64,000 bases of DNA from Actinomycetota bacterium. Lineage in GTDB: Bacteria > Actinomycetota > Geothermincolia > Geothermincolales > RBG-13-55-18. The notes beneath the pieces were generated by a model. That model saw only the letters and a program-made list of their open reading frames with translations. It was not told the origin of the DNA and did not search any database. Location: assembly GCA_028697145.1 (NCBI GenBank), contig JAQVFR010000003.1, positions 76,834-140,833 of the forward strand, written 5' to 3'. Positions within the stretch are counted from its first letter, which is position 1, and each line of letters opens with the position of its first letter. The position numbers and the translations under genes were made by a program. Below are positions 41,225 through 46,891 of this stretch, piece by piece.

Positions 41225-42400
41225 CTATACCCTCTCGATGATGATGGCGGTACCCTGGCCGCCGCCGATACACAGGGTCGCGAGGCCGGTCTTCACGTCC
41301 AGGTCCCGCATGGCGCTCATCAGCGTGACCACGATGCGGGCGCCGGTGCATCCCACCGGGTGCCCCAGAGCGACGCCGCTGCCGTAGATGTTGGTGATCT
41401 CCGGGTCGAGGCCGAGTTCACGGATGCAGGTGAAAGCCTGCGCGGCGAAGGCCTCGTTGAGCTCGATGACCCCGATGTCCTCCAGCTTCAAGCCCGCCTT
41501 CTCCAGCGCCTTGGGCACGGCGTAGATGGGGCCAACCCCCATGATCTCGGGGTCCACGCCCACGTAGGAGTAGGAGAGCACCCTGGCCAGTGGCTTGACC
41601 CCCAACTCCTCCACCTTTTCTCCGGACACCAGGACCAGCGCCGCGGCGGCGTCGTTTATTCCGGAGGCGTTGCCCGCCGTCACCGTGCCGTCCTTCTTGA
41701 AGGCGGGCGGGAGTGAGGCCAGCTTCTCCAGGGTGGTCTCGGTGGGGTGTTCGTCGGTGTCGAAGACGACCGTACCCTTGCGTGTCTTCATCTCTACCGG
41801 CACTATCTCCTGCTTGAACTTCCCGGCGGCGATGGCGGCCAGGGCGCGCCGCTGGCTCTCCAGGGCGTATGCGTCCTGCTCCTCGCGGCTGACGCCGTAG
41901 CGCTCGGCGATGTTCTCGGCGGTCATGCCCATGACCAGGCCGTTATACGGATCGTGCAGGACCTCCCACAGGCCGTCGATGAACTCCCCGCTGCGCATGC
42001 GCTTTCCCCAGCGCATGTCGTTGCTGTAGTAATGGATGGAGCTCATGTTCTCCGCTCCGCCCGCGACCGCCACCCCCGAGTCCCCCAGGCGTATCGCCCG
42101 CACCGCGTCTATGACCGCCTGCATGCCGGAGCCGCAGCCTCGGATGACGCCCGAGGCAGGGACCGTGTCGGGTATGCCCGCCTTCAGGGCCCCCAGCCTG
42201 GCCGCCAGGCAGTTCTCGTCCGTGCGCGGCACCACCTGGCCGAACACTACGTCGTCCACCTCGTCCGGGGAGATGTTCGCCCGCTTCAGCGCCTCCTCGA
42301 TGACTATGCGCACCAGTTCTCCCGTCTTTACGTCCTTGAGGCTGCCACCGTACTTGCCGATGGCCGTGCGGCACCCGCTCACGATGTAGGCTTCGTTCAT
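41225..42400 (-). CDS. Acetyl-CoA C-acetyltransferase (thiolase II)
   Basis: 391 aa. Active-site motifs …[11 protein letters not shown]… (Cys) and …[12 protein letters not shown]… C-terminus. Confidence 0.9.
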
Positions 42401-42517
42401 TTCTCCCTCCCTCTCCGCTTATCTTGATGCATCCTTATCTCACCGGTTGCCGGCAAGGGCTCCGCGTGCCTCTCCTACCACCCTCCCGGCGCGGCCCGGC
42501 TCCTTCCGCGAGGAGCC

Positions 42518-42715
42518 TTACTGGCATTTTATGAAGCGCCGGATGGAGCGGTCGTAGGTGCGCTCCACCTCGGGCGGGAAATAACAGGCCGGCAGTTCCC
42601 CCATGCGCCGGTGATATTCCAGACACTCGCAGCAGTAACCCTTGCGGGAGCAGGGTTCGTAGGTGCAGTTACACCTTTCCAGGTTGGCCTGATGGTTCTT
42701 GCATTCCCCCGCCAT
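42518..42715 (-). CDS. Small cysteine-rich protein (65 aa, 8 Cys), probably metal-binding
   Basis: [47 protein letters not shown]… The ATG is at 42713-42715; the track ORF extends further upstream. Confidence 0.5.
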
Positions 42716-42941
42716 ACGCACTCCTCCTCGTCCTGAGCTGACCTGCTGTCGAAGCACAGTTTACAACATTAATCAGAGTTCGCGTATTGCGCAAGAAAGA
42801 GCTTGTGGGCGAGGTAGAGGATCCGGCGGGGCTGGGGCGGCATCACCCTTCTCGCCGCGAAGCCCGGTGATGTCGTGGGGCCGACAGGCTTGCTGCGTAC
42901 TGCCGTTGCTACCTGTGTCCGGTCCAGCAAACGTCCCGGCC

Positions 42942-44193: not shown

Positions 44194-44234
44194 CGATCAC
44201 CGACTCCCCATGCCCTCTGACGCATGCGTTGCTC

Positions 44235-45911
44235 TCAGCCCATGCCCATGCGCAGGGTGGCCTCCAGGTTCATCGGGGGCAGGTCATCGGGGTCGATGAT
44301 CACGTCCACCACCGCCGGACCCGGCGCCGCGAGCGCCTCCCCCAGGACCTCGCCGATGTCCTCCACCCGCTCCAGCCTGAAACCCGCCGCGCCGAAGGAA
44401 CGCGCCAGGGCGGCGAAATCGGGATTGCCGTGGCAGGTTCCCAGTATCCTCCCGCCGCACTGTACGCGCTGCCTGATGTTCAGCACCCTGTACATGTTAT
44501 CGTTCATTACCAGCACGCGCACCCCGATCTTCTCTCGGCATGCCGTCTCCAGGTCCTGCAGGGTCATCATGAAATCGCCGTCGCCAAGGATGGCCACCAC
44601 CTCTGCCCCGGGGCGTACGAGTTTCGCGGCAAGAGCGGCGGGAAAGCCGAAGCCCATGGCGCCGAAGTTGACCGCCGAGAGGAAGCTCAGGGGCTCCCGG
44701 CAGGGCAGGAAATCCATGGGATAGAGCAGATGGGTGCCCGCGCCCACGGTGATGATATGTCCCCCGGACAGCAGGCGGCCCAACTCGTGCACCACCCGCC
44801 CCGGGGAGAGCGGCACCTTGTCCGAGGCGATGGACGCCTCGATCTGGCTTTCCCATTCCCGCCTCTTCGGCTCCAGGAGACCCCACCATTTCCCGCGCGA
44901 AGGGGGGCGGTAATCCCTCACGGCCCCCAACGCTTCCACGAGGAAGTCCCTCACGTCGGCCTCCACCATATAGCTGGCGCGGAAGCGGCTCGTCAGCATG
45001 GCCTCCAGGTCTATATTCACCAGGACCACGTCGCCGTTGATCGGCAGCGTATACTCGTAGCTGGTCATGTCCGAGATGGTGCATCCCAGGCCCAGCACCA
45101 CGTCCGCCTCCATGAGGGCGGTGTCCGCGACCGTGTTACCGCCCCCGAAACCCGCCCTGCCCAGGCAGAGGGGGTGGTCCTCGGGGATGGTGCCGCGGCC
45201 GTTGCCGGTGGTTATCACCGGCACGTGCAGTGCCTCGGCGAAACGCACCAGGAGGTCCGAGCTTCGCGAGTAGGCCACCCCTCCTCCCGAGAGCAGCAGG
45301 GGCCTTTCCGCCTCCTTCACCGTACCCAGGGCGCGCCACACGTCCTCCACGTGCAGGGGCGGCCGGAATTCGGCAGAGAGCCTGAAATCAGGAGGTGGGC
45401 CGTGCAGCTCCTCACCCCATACGTCCTCGGGAACCTCGATGAGCACGGGCCCGCGCGCCCCCGATACCGCCAGGGTGTAGGCCTTTGAGAAGACGGCGGC
45501 CGCCCGCCCGGCGTCCTCCAGCCGGAAGACCCCCTTGCACAGCGGGGCGAAGATGCCCACATGATCGGCCTCAAGCATGCCGTCGGATCCCCTGAGCTTC
45601 CTTTTCACGGCGCCGCTGATGACGACCATGGGGCTGCAGTCCTTGTAGGCGTTGCCCGCAGAGATGAGGGCGTTCAGGGTGCCCGGCCCGGAGTGGGTTA
45701 GTGCGACCCCGGGCACGCCGGTAAGGCGGCCCTCGGCATCCGCCATGCTGGCGGCCACCTGCTCGTGGCGGCAGGATATATAGCGAATCTCCTCCTGGTG
45801 ATCGTAGAGGGCATCGACGAAGGAGATATTGGAGGTGCCGATGACGCCGTATATCCTCTCCGCTCCCATGGCCTTTATCCCCTCGATAAGCACCTGCGCG
45901 CAGTTCATCAT
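44235..45911 (-). CDS. Thiamine-pyrophosphate enzyme of the acetolactate-synthase large-subunit family
   Basis: 558 aa. N-terminal Pyr domain, central domain, and C-terminal PP domain with a GDG(X)n motif (…AILGDGDFMMT…). Confidence 0.8.
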   Translation of the reverse strand: MMNCAQVLIEGIKAMGAERIYGVIGTSNISFVDALYDHQEEIRYISCRHEQVAASMADAEGRLTGVPGVALTHSGPGTLNALISAGNAYKDCSPMVVISGAVKRKLRGSDGMLEADHVGIFAPLCKGVFRLEDAGRAAAVFSKAYTLAVSGARGPVLIEVPEDVWGEELHGPPPDFRLSAEFRPPLHVEDVWRALGTVKEAERPLLLSGGGVAYSRSSDLLVRFAEALHVPVITTGNGRGTIPEDHPLCLGRAGFGGGNTVADTALMEADVVLGLGCTISDMTSYEYTLPINGDVVLVNIDLEAMLTSRFRASYMVEADVRDFLVEALGAVRDYRPPSRGKWWGLLEPKRREWESQIEASIASDKVPLSPGRVVHELGRLLSGGHIITVGAGTHLLYPMDFLPCREPLSFLSAVNFGAMGFGFPAALAAKLVRPGAEVVAILGDGDFMMTLQDLETACREKIGVRVLVMNDNMYRVLNIRQRVQCGGRILGTCHGNPDFAALARSFGAAGFRLERVEDIGEVLGEALAAPGPAVVDVIIDPDDLPPMNLEATLRMGMG

Positions 45912-46891
45912 CTCACCCCGTTTACCACGTATAGCGGCTTCTCTCCGGACAGCACCCGGTTCACGTTCTCCATGGTTATGGTAAGCATCCTGACCCTGCT
46001 CTCGTTGGTCCCGCCCGATACGTGGGGGGAGAGGATGACTTTGTCCGAGGCCAGCAGGGGGTTGTAGGGGTCGACGGGCTCACGCGTGAAGACGTCTATG
46101 CCGGCGCCCGCCAGGCGGCCTTCTCCCAGGGCCTCGGCCAATGCCGCTTCGTCCACCACCTCCCCGCGTGCCAGGTTGAGCAGGTGTGCGTCCGGCTTCA
46201 TCATGGCCAGGCGCTCGCGGTCGATGAGCCGGGTGGTCTCGGGCGTCAGGGGCACGTGCAGGGTGGCTATGTCCGCCGCCGGCAGGAGTTCCTCCAGGTC
46301 GAGACGCTCCGCCTCCAGTTCCTCCTCGAGCTCCGCGGGCAGGGCGACCGTGTCGCTGTAAACGATGCGGCACCCGAAGGCCTTGGCCCTTTTCGCCACC
46401 TCCCTGCCGATATTGCCCATGCCGATTATGCCCAGGGTCTTGCCGTGCAGCTCGGACAGGCCCAGGGTGAAGATTTCCTGCTGCGCCCACTCCCCCGCCG
46501 CGGTCTTGTCGTGGAAATAAAGCGCCCTCTTGAGCAGGCACAGCATGAACATGATGGCCTGTTCGGCCACCCCTATGGCGTTGGCCGCGCCCACGTTGGC
46601 CACCGGGATGCCCGCAAGCCGGGTAGCCTCGAGGTCGATGTGCTGATAACCGATGCTGGGTTGCTGGATGAGCATGCAGCCCCTCGCCGCCTCGGCGACG
46701 GTAGCGTCTATGGGGATGCGAAACGTGAAATCGCCGATGATCACACCCGCCCCCCTCACGGCATCGACGAGGCCCGGCCCCGGATCCCCCGCGTACGTCT
46801 CTATGAAGACATCGTCGCTTCCCGCCGCGGCGGCAAACATGCCTTGGGCAACCTCCTGCGGCAGCGGTGCGAGCACCACTATCTTCACCAT
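45908..46891 (-). CDS. D-isomer-specific 2-hydroxyacid dehydrogenase (PGDH-like), NAD-binding
   Basis: GIIGMGNIGREVA Rossmann motif and catalytic …LARGEVVDE…SPHVSG… Start at the ATG giving MVKIVVLAPL; the track ORF extends upstream from a GTG. Confidence 0.8.
   Translation of the reverse strand: MVKIVVLAPLPQEVAQGMFAAAAGSDDVFIETYAGDPGPGLVDAVRGAGVIIGDFTFRIPIDATVAEAARGCMLIQQPSIGYQHIDLEATRLAGIPVANVGAANAIGVAEQAIMFMLCLLKRALYFHDKTAAGEWAQQEIFTLGLSELHGKTLGIIGMGNIGREVAKRAKAFGCRIVYSDTVALPAELEEELEAERLDLEELLPAADIATLHVPLTPETTRLIDRERLAMMKPDAHLLNLARGEVVDEAALAEALGEGRLAGAGIDVFTREPVDPYNPLLASDKVILSPHVSGGTNESRVRMLTITMENVNRVLSGEKPLYVVNGVR

Follow-up and report, generated by a model that had tools for sequence, protein, structure and literature searches.

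Gene content of the locus

The window that we analyzed is a 64,000-nucleotide stretch of a Geothermincolia MAG (Actinomycetota) from the uncultured hot-spring family that contains Candidatus Solincola (family f1). At positions 41225-46891, it carries six co-directional genes, all on the minus strand. Profile searches confirmed the family of each, and the six genes that the earlier note had placed between two repeats are thus present. In order along the coding strand, they encode an NAD-type D-isomer-specific 2-hydroxyacid dehydrogenase (2HADH), an ALS-like ThDP-dependent enzyme (TPP enzyme), a YjbQ protein, a DUF62 protein, a DUF6485 protein and a thiolase. Within the block we find overlaps of 4 and 8 nt and gaps of 41, about 225 and 117 nt; no intrinsic terminator was predicted inside it, and the only sigma-70-like promoter match on the coding strand (46940-46967, minus strand), a consensus match only, sits at its head, about 50 nt upstream of the 2HADH start. 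Because of this tight packing without an internal terminator, co-expression of the six genes is possible in this organism.

The block is flanked by two copies of a dispersed intergenic repeat, one upstream (47053-47190) and one downstream (40630-40765). Each is about 130 nt long, and the two share an exact 52-nt core. A search of the 3.0-Mb genome gave 36 matches to the repeat, which lies at other intergenic sites in relatives; so dispersed, it does not mark an island. Beyond the downstream copy, a cobalamin riboswitch (40397-40574, minus strand; Rfam RF00174, 100.1 bits) opens the next, unrelated operon, cobU-cobT-cobS.

The last gene of the block (41225-42400, minus strand) encodes an acetyl-CoA C-acyltransferase (thiolase) of 391 amino acids with Thiolase_N and Thiolase_C domains. 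It exceeds the TIGR01930 cut-off (461 against 240 bits) but does not reach that of the BktB equivalog (479 against 725 bits). The genome encodes at least five full thiolases, this one included. Next to it we observed a seventh item between the repeats, a thiolase pseudogene (40774-41198, minus strand) that keeps about 96 N-terminal and about 45 C-terminal codons (Thiolase_N positions 1-94 and Thiolase_C positions 80-123) and has lost the middle. Its closest relative is the adjacent thiolase (71% amino acid and 76-78% nucleotide identity), identifying it as an internally deleted tandem paralogue, and no counterpart was seen in relatives. On the other side of the thiolase lies the gene for DUF6485 (42518-42715, minus strand), a Cys-rich small protein of 65 amino acids whose match to PF20095 (26.2 bits) is just over the 24-bit cut-off. 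An AGGAGG site precedes its ATG and about 225 nt of non-coding DNA lie upstream; it is probably its own transcription unit. At the opposite end of the block, a butyryl-CoA-dehydrogenase-like acyl-CoA dehydrogenase (ACAD; 47284-48426, plus strand) is divergently oriented. Of the NCBIfam models, that of acryloyl-CoA reductase matches it best, at 348 bits, a score below cut-off. The ACAD adjoins the block in this orientation in genomes of families f1 and f3 and is a syntenic partner across the order.

The YjbQ and DUF62 proteins

The yjbQ gene (43762-44193, minus strand; 143 amino acids or slightly shorter) begins 41 nt past the stop of the TPP enzyme gene. Its product belongs to YjbQ/UPF0047 (PF01894, E 1.1e-43) and scores 149.7 bits with TIGR00149, for which the cut-off is 67.75. 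The DUF62 gene (42942-43769, minus strand; 275 amino acids) overlaps yjbQ by 8 nt and encodes a SAM hydroxide adenosyltransferase with SAM_HAT_N and SAM_HAT_C domains, both above cut-off (PF01887, E 1.3e-50; PF20257, E 4.5e-12). The best NCBIfam matches are two (R)-SAM hydrolase models, each below its cut-off (NF058624, 175.5 of 350 bits; NF053629, 131.4 of 470 bits), and among solved structures the protein is closest to DUF62 proteins and the SalL chlorinase. Mapped by motif context rather than structure superposition onto the triad of PH0463, D71 and R78 are invariant in 49/49 homologues, and H130 is present here as well as in 38 of the 49. A His-Arg-Asp triad is reported to be specific to the hydrolases and lacking in halogenases (PMC10491745). 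With these residues, the protein looks like a SAM hydrolase. We rejected a fluorinase or chlorinase, given the hydrolytic triad and a TIGR04507 score of 60 bits against a cut-off of 400.

The (R)-SAM hydrolases known from Salinispora (StDUF62), Pyrococcus (PH0463), Sulfolobus and Haloferax (SAMH) share both SAM_HAT domains with the protein described here, as well as an Asp and an Arg spaced 7 residues apart in VDPGVGTRR and a His in TFHxRD. The gene context differs: the DUF62 gene overlaps yjbQ here, whereas in Sulfolobus it is accompanied by a triphosphate tunnel metalloenzyme and an NMN adenylyltransferase. From its sequence, the enzyme is predicted to hydrolyze SAM to adenosine and L-methionine, and it would most probably act on the heat-generated, inactive (R)-sulfonium epimer, a form of metabolite repair. 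Selectivity for (R)-SAM and heat-driven SAM epimerization have been described (bioRxiv 10.1101/2025.08.29.672840, PMC12120602), although one of these studies questions whether all DUF62 enzymes have (R)-SAM removal as their physiological role (PMC12120602). The lineage has been recorded from a 55 °C spring (PMC12917137). The best reading, which fits a heat-exposed lineage, is that the protein is probably an (R)-SAM repair hydrolase.

In all sampled genomes of three families, YjbQ and DUF62 lie within about 60 nt of each other in the same order and on the same strand. This constancy and the 8-nt overlap would be expected of a true functional couple, in which the target of YjbQ is either a substrate or product of SAM hydrolysis or a different damaged cofactor. 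Such a couple would provide the missing role for YjbQ, whose physiological function is unknown (PMC3010111). We nevertheless consider it unlikely, because one ancestral event accounts for the linkage. Of 251 Actinomycetota genomes, 153 carry DUF62 (a tally that takes in 10 unpublished genomes, all matching), yet among 40 other actinobacterial families it has YjbQ within 4 kb in one, at a distance of 1.8 kb. Neither 2HADH, the TPP enzyme, DUF6485 nor the thiolase was found within 4 kb of DUF62 in those 40 families, and none of the five partners was found beside it in 80 metagenome contigs, 52 of which extend at least 600 nt upstream. This absence of linkage speaks against the suggestion of the earlier note that SAM cleavage is part of a pathway shared by the six genes.

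The dehydrogenase and ThDP enzyme pair

The 2HADH gene (45908-46891, minus strand; 327 amino acids; Pfam 2-Hacid_dh_C, E 7.5e-59) is the first of the pair. Its reading frame could open at 47059, but the alignment of relatives begins only around residues 52-57, and the ATG at 46891 has a GGGAGG site in front of it. The catalytic Arg, Glu and His positions are seen in NLARG, FTREP and SPHVSG, and an Asp follows the Rossmann beta-2 strand, which points to a preference for NAD. Glyoxylate/hydroxypyruvate reductases and short D-3-phosphoglycerate dehydrogenases have the same fold and are the nearest solved structures (best 5tx7, 1wwk and 2cuk). 2HADH is set apart from them in that it falls below every NCBIfam equivalog cut-off and is conserved next to a ThDP enzyme. 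Counting 2HADH, the genome has five 2-Hacid_dh paralogues. We rejected its assignment as serA, because it scores 216 bits with the SerA model TIGR01327 (cut-off 454) and a long-form, serA-type 2-Hacid_dh gene adjoins the ilv genes on contig C26.

The TPP enzyme gene (44235-45911, minus strand; 558 amino acids, three TPP_enzyme domains) starts within the 4-nt overlap with the 2HADH stop. Its product shares with AHAS/acetolactate synthase (IlvB, AlsS) the three-domain ThDP fold, the catalytic Glu in RHEQ and the GDG...N motif, and its alignment with E. coli AHAS I runs from end to end, covering chain residues 16-544 of 562. The ThDP superfamily is defined by a cofactor-activating Glu and a GDG-X(24-27)-N motif; accordingly, Glu49, G442-D443-G444 and N469 are invariant in 12 orthologues, which places the enzyme in this superfamily. 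The RFDDR motif in the AHAS middle domain has a role in acceptor binding. At these positions the TPP enzyme reads TISDM, of which S279, D280 and M281 are invariant among orthologues, and the family has its own invariant motif, YRVL-x2-RQ, after the ThDP motif. The enzyme shares 31-34% identity with the other ALS-like genes of the genome, including the canonical ilvB (C26:52603-54285), which scores 832 bits; its own score with the IlvB equivalog TIGR00118 is 366 bits, below the cut-off of 538. Because of this score, the missing RFDDR and the canonical copy on C26, we rejected ilvB as its identity. Its partner is likewise 2HADH, in place of the ilvN/ilvC set that accompanies IlvB. Both enzymes are thus non-housekeeping paralogues of ilvB and serA, whose canonical copies lie on C26.

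2HADH lies immediately upstream of the TPP enzyme, on the same strand, at 10 of 11 loci in Chloroflexota, at all four assessable loci in Planctomycetota, at one locus in Acidobacteriota and at five of seven in Archaeoglobi; across these loci we found no third conserved neighbor. Of the six genes, only this pair stays linked across distant phyla. Dehydrogenase and ThDP enzyme are a real functional pair, for which any putative substrate is a guess. In four f1 genomes, one partner has been lost from an otherwise retained block; the two enzymes therefore do not strictly depend on each other. The two genes would be translationally coupled and form a self-contained module, in which 2HADH would interconvert a small D-2-hydroxy acid and the 2-oxo acid with NAD(H), and the ThDP enzyme would then decarboxylate or carboligate the 2-oxo acid. 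Cyanobacteria have a two-gene shunt of comparable design, with an ALS-like ThDP enzyme, 2-oxoglutarate decarboxylase, and one dehydrogenase, succinic semialdehyde dehydrogenase. The cyanobacterial partner is an aldehyde dehydrogenase, whereas the partner here is 2HADH; we observed the aldehyde dehydrogenase arrangement only beside a distant second TPP paralogue, at two Thermodesulfobacteriota loci. As an uncharacterized and widely conserved two-enzyme module, the pair merits a biochemical look.

Could the pair instead work with the ACAD and the thiolase, which lie on either side of it in family f1, on acyl-CoA-derived substrates, for example in a 2-hydroxyacyl-CoA lyase/synthase-type reaction linked to beta-oxidation? 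Among solved structures, 2-hydroxyacyl-CoA lyase and oxalyl-CoA decarboxylase match the TPP enzyme nearly as well as ALS does (195 against 219 bits). At three Archaeoglobi loci, ACAD, enoyl-CoA hydratase (ECH) or thiolase genes lie near the pair: one Archaeoglobus locus has a co-directional ACAD-ECH-2HADH-TPP array, and the two others have an ACAD or a thiolase 3.5 kb away. Against this, the top NCBIfam matches are ALS-type rather than oxalyl-CoA decarboxylase-type, no acyl-CoA genes lie near the pair in most phyla, and in families f3-f6 it lies apart from the ACAD and the thiolase. Archaeoglobi are rich in beta-oxidation genes and the genome studied here has many thiolases, so these adjacencies are likely due to chance. 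We therefore regard a joint acyl-CoA pathway as quite doubtful.

Synteny of the six-gene block

The block is present in 23/23 sampled f1 genomes and complete in 19, and the synteny also takes in the unrelated lgt and, where the contig extends, cobUTS. Outside this family the block splits. The sister families f2 and f3 have an ACAD / YjbQ-DUF62-DUF6485-thiolase block without the 2HADH-TPP pair, and in three sister-family genomes the pair lies on contigs other than that of YjbQ-DUF62. In families f4-f6, no DUF62 was found and the pair is located beside the dcw cluster. Conservation of YjbQ-DUF62 together with DUF6485, the thiolase and the divergently oriented ACAD is confined to the order Geothermincolales. 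Inserts of 0.8-3.3 kb separate thiolase and DUF6485 in some relatives, inserts at three loci part one or the other from the remaining block, and the DUF6485 strand is inverted in three sister-family genomes.

These observations bear on the proposal of the earlier note that all six genes form one accessory pathway, condensing a 2-oxo/2-hydroxy acid with acetyl-CoA while SAM cleavage supplies or removes a component. The co-directional, tightly spaced genes behind a single promoter-like site, the arrangement held throughout family f1 and the non-housekeeping pair all speak for it. The neighborhood conservation that the note named as a check extends to this family and gives way in the sister families, where the pair and YjbQ-DUF62-DUF6485-thiolase occupy separate loci; outside the order, DUF62 occurs without linked partners. 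The strand change, the inserts, the loss of single pair partners with retention of the rest, and the equal synteny of unrelated lgt and cob genes argue against it further, and we consider a single pathway very unlikely. What survives of the earlier reading is the dehydrogenase/ThDP pair; the idea that SAM cleavage supplies a pathway of six genes falls. The outcome that the note itself had named as refuting it, an unconserved neighborhood of genes matching housekeeping orthologs such as ilvB and serA, was not found, as the neighborhood is conserved in relatives and both genes are paralogues.

By a cluster or island test that looks for genes kept together in distant lineages and for distinct borders and composition, the block does not form a single-operon unit: it splits outside f1, its repeats are dispersed, and its GC (0.65-0.66) and GC3 are the same as those of the flanks. 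A horizontally acquired island bordered by the two repeats as direct repeats is hardly credible, as it is contradicted by their dispersal, by the flank-like composition and by the identity of every block gene, which declines with taxonomic distance among relatives' genomes, the pattern expected of vertical descent.

The block is thus at least three separate adjoining gene units in ordinary synteny, not one pathway. We judge it rather likely that the six genes are a lineage-specific, vertically inherited juxtaposition of independent units. The 2HADH-TPP pair would be the first unit; its move into the gap between ACAD and yjbQ would date to the Solincola family's ancestor. The YjbQ-DUF62 bicistron, conserved only in Geothermincolales, would be the second, and these two may be co-transcribed in this genome because the 41-nt gap between them lacks a terminator. 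DUF6485, transcribed separately, would be the third. The thiolase and the divergent ACAD would form a fourth unit with a role in ordinary acyl-CoA metabolism.

Against this reading, the YjbQ-DUF62-DUF6485-thiolase-ACAD block remains stable over three families; function, and not inertia, could be the reason.

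Gene layout and conservation within Geothermincolia

The six genes between 41225 and 46891 are co-directional, as the earlier note had described: ORF listing and profile searches place all of them on the minus strand. They encode a D-2-hydroxyacid dehydrogenase (2HADH; 46891..45908), an acetolactate synthase (ALS)-like ThDP enzyme (45911..44235), YjbQ/UPF0047 (44193..43762), a DUF62 SAM hydroxide adenosyltransferase (43769..42942), a Cys-rich DUF6485 protein of 65 amino acids (42715..42518), and a thiolase (42400..41225). Two junctions are overlaps, 4 nt between the 2HADH stop and the start of the ThDP gene and 8 nt between YjbQ and DUF62; the other three are gaps of 41, about 225 and 117 nt. 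Upstream and divergent lies a butyryl-CoA-dehydrogenase-like acyl-CoA dehydrogenase gene (ACAD; 47284..48426). The GC content and GC3 of the block are the same as those of its flanks. Judged by the source names of close homologues, the host is an actinomycetotal genome of the class Geothermincolia, order Geothermincolales, and its family includes Candidatus Solincola; this lineage is reported from hot springs, such as one at 55°C (PMC12917137).

An internally deleted thiolase remnant (41198..40774) lies 3' of the intact thiolase, followed by a repeat copy, a cobalamin riboswitch (RF00174, 100 bits), and cobU-cobT-cobS. The remnant is a pseudogene from which about 250 central codons are gone, and none of the relatives examined showed a counterpart. 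Because its closest relative is the adjacent intact thiolase (71% amino acid identity), it represents an old tandem duplicate.

Across all 23 sampled genomes of the host family (f1, seven genera), the six genes are collinear, apart from four losses of one partner of the 2HADH-ThDP pair: 2HADH is gone in G003 and reduced to a 52-aa remnant in G011, and the ThDP gene is missing in G009 and G010. At three f1 loci (L037, L039 and L041), inserts of 0.8-3.3 kb part DUF6485 from thiolase or DUF62. The collinearity also takes in ACAD, lgt and, given enough contig, cobUTS; it thus reaches clearly unrelated genes and is not peculiar to the six. In the sister families of the same order (f2 and f3), ACAD and the YjbQ-DUF62-DUF6485-thiolase block are kept and the pair is missing from it, lying on separate contigs in three genomes (G025, G026 and G027). 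The DUF6485 strand is flipped in three f2/f3 genomes, and in f2 other genes stand in the place of the thiolase. In the other Geothermincolia families (f4-f6), the pair has the dcw cluster on one side and a glycosyltransferase/aminotransferase group on the other, and DUF62 was not found. The f1 arrangement arose by insertion of the pair between the ACAD gene and yjbQ.

At the loci of these class-level relatives (L047-L054), the dcw flank reads mraZ-rsmH-ftsL-PBP-murE. The opposite flank is a conserved convergent group that, by sequence inspection, comprises two paralogous glycosyltransferase-like genes, a third similar gene and an aminotransferase-like gene.

Because the block splits in f2/f3 and its synteny includes the unrelated lgt and cobUTS, the proposal that the six genes form one accessory pathway does not hold. 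Rather, synteny passed down by vertical inheritance brings together here the widely conserved, uncharacterised pair, a YjbQ-DUF62 bicistron, a small Cys-rich protein gene and ordinary acyl-CoA genes, and each of these units calls for its own annotation. A false lead is thereby removed: the six genes constitute no island and no new biosynthetic pathway that depends on SAM. Two modest leads emerge: the 2HADH/ThDP pair, which is widespread in anaerobic and thermophilic lineages and usually mis-annotated as acetolactate synthase, and a further heat-exposed lineage for the putative DUF62 (R)-SAM repair hydrolase. Among the parts of the block, the pair alone merits biochemical follow-up.

The 2HADH/ThDP pair

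Both members of the pair differ from the housekeeping copies, which sit on another contig of the same genome (C26). The canonical ilvB (C26:52603-54285) scores 832 bits against TIGR00118, and the window's ThDP enzyme reaches 366 bits against a cut-off of 538 bits; it is 31-34% identical to the genome's remaining ALS-like genes. Inside 6 kb of C26 (48726-54285), ilvB lies with a KARI-like gene and a long-form 2-Hacid_dh (serA-type) gene, so housekeeping copies of both families neighbour each other too.

Orthologues of the ThDP enzyme retain the activating Glu (RHEQ) and the GDG...N motif. The Arg of the AHAS motif RFDDR binds the acceptor carboxylate. Aligned with E. coli AHAS I and plant AHAS, the window's enzyme has TISDM in place of this motif, with SDM invariant, and the segment past the ThDP motif carries an invariant, family-specific YRVL-x2-RQ. 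Structure matches rank ALS best (219 bits) and 2-hydroxyacyl-CoA lyases next (195 bits), and the ESM Atlas clusters return only generic 'acetolactate synthase'. We rejected glyoxylate carboligase (Gcl), which is not known to carry the catalytic Glu that the window's enzyme has, and PDB matches to Gcl are weaker. The 2HADH is closest to glyoxylate/hydroxypyruvate reductases and short PGDHs, and inspection finds the catalytic Arg, Glu and His positions retained. It would interconvert a small D-2-hydroxy acid and the corresponding 2-oxo acid in an NAD-linked reaction, and the ThDP enzyme may perform a decarboxylation or carboligation coupled to that 2-oxo acid step.

Aligning the orthologues against one genome per species recovered 70 loci. 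The 2HADH gene lies directly upstream of the ThDP gene, on the same strand, at 10 of 11 Chloroflexota loci, all four assessable Planctomycetota loci, one Acidobacteriota locus and five of seven Archaeoglobi loci. A Thermodesulfobacteriota-like clade and the loci L145, L154 and L163 lack it at this position. Identity to the window's copies drops in parallel for both proteins, from 87% and 80% to 47% and 45%, and no conserved third neighbour was found at loci outside Geothermincolia. Because no third gene is kept beside the pair and both identities drop together, the pair acts as a self-contained functional unit.

In Archaeoglobi, the co-directional downstream genes appear on inspection to encode a membrane protein and two probable methyltransferases. 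Archaeoglobus sp. JdFR-41 (L172:3906-8647) carries ACAD, enoyl-CoA hydratase, 2HADH and ThDP genes contiguously and co-directionally, and at no other locus outside Geothermincolia do acyl-CoA genes abut the pair; at two other Archaeoglobi loci, ACAD or thiolase lies 3.5 kb away. These acyl-CoA genes hint at a link with the pair, a weak lead.

At four loci from Thermodesulfobacteriota-labelled MAGs (L119, L120, L122 and L123), the ThDP orthologues share 66-67% identity with the window's enzyme and have no 2HADH partner. Their identity exceeds that of the class-level Geothermincolia families (54-60%), which, together with the missing 2HADH, suggests lateral transfer or mis-binning. L119 and L123 also carry a second, distant ThDP paralogue, followed by an aldehyde dehydrogenase gene.

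The YjbQ-DUF62 bicistron

DUF62 is common, occurring in 153 of 251 sampled Actinomycetota genomes; this tally includes 10 unpublished genomes, all 10 matching (143/241 without them), from which no loci were drawn. In loci of 40 other families, YjbQ lies within 4 kb of DUF62 just once (1.8 kb), and none of the remaining four block genes is near it. Likewise, 80 metagenome contigs with DUF62 homologues, 52 of them with at least 600 nt upstream, contain none of the five partner genes. The linkage recurs once in the first set and never in the second, which makes the bicistron a single-lineage trait.

D71 and R78 of DUF62 are invariant in 49 homologues, and H130 is present in the window's protein and in 38 of the 49. 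These residues match the His-Arg-Asp triad of SAM hydrolases, which is described as hydrolase-specific and missing from halogenases (PMC10491745); with the triad present, we rejected a halogenase reading. The window's protein scores under both NCBIfam equivalog cut-offs. Those DUF62 enzymes that have been characterised act as hydrolases on an inactive epimer of SAM, the (R)-sulfonium form, whose origin is heat-driven (bioRxiv 10.1101/2025.08.29.672840; PMC12120602), and PMC12120602 doubts that removing it is their sole physiological role. The order-specific bicistron probably serves SAM repair. YjbQ has no established physiological function, and its thiamine-phosphate synthase activity is deemed promiscuous (PMC3010111). 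We also rejected thiamine as what links YjbQ to the ThDP enzyme, as their genes are adjacent in f1 only.

We tentatively propose, as a possibility somewhat short of even, the following joint reading. The translationally coupled 2HADH/ThDP pair would be an uncharacterised module conserved in Geothermincolia, Chloroflexota, Planctomycetota, Acidobacteriota and Archaeoglobi, its ThDP enzyme forming a distinct subfamily (SDM for RFDDR, YRVL-x2-RQ) with a 2-oxo-acid conversion new among ALS-like families; separately, the bicistron might place YjbQ in the handling of damaged SAM.

Dispersed repeats and small neighbouring genes

Both repeat copies flanking the block share an exact 52-nt core, and the element has 36 matches across the 2.98-Mb genome. 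Relatives carry members of the repeat family at different intergenic sites, namely the DUF6485/DUF62 gap in L038 and past the ACAD gene in L035. The flanking repeats are thus copies of a dispersed intergenic element and not island borders, and we rejected an island bounded by them.

Most genomes of the family have a gene for a single-domain response regulator in the ACAD/2HADH interval (L036:6744-7184; same slot in L037-L042). It is absent from G002 and from the window's genome, where the best genome-wide match is 40% identical and a copy of the dispersed repeat occupies the slot (47060-47283).

A search for larger, fused DUF6485 proteins yielded no case, its hits being limited to ORFs with misplaced starts, a tandem-domain form and a single odd product of 138 aa. 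In this last protein (P0126, from a 987-nt ENA contig), a TPP_enzyme_N domain is joined to the 16-residue C-terminal motif of DUF6485; as a single sequence, it may reflect either chimeric assembly or a true rearrangement.
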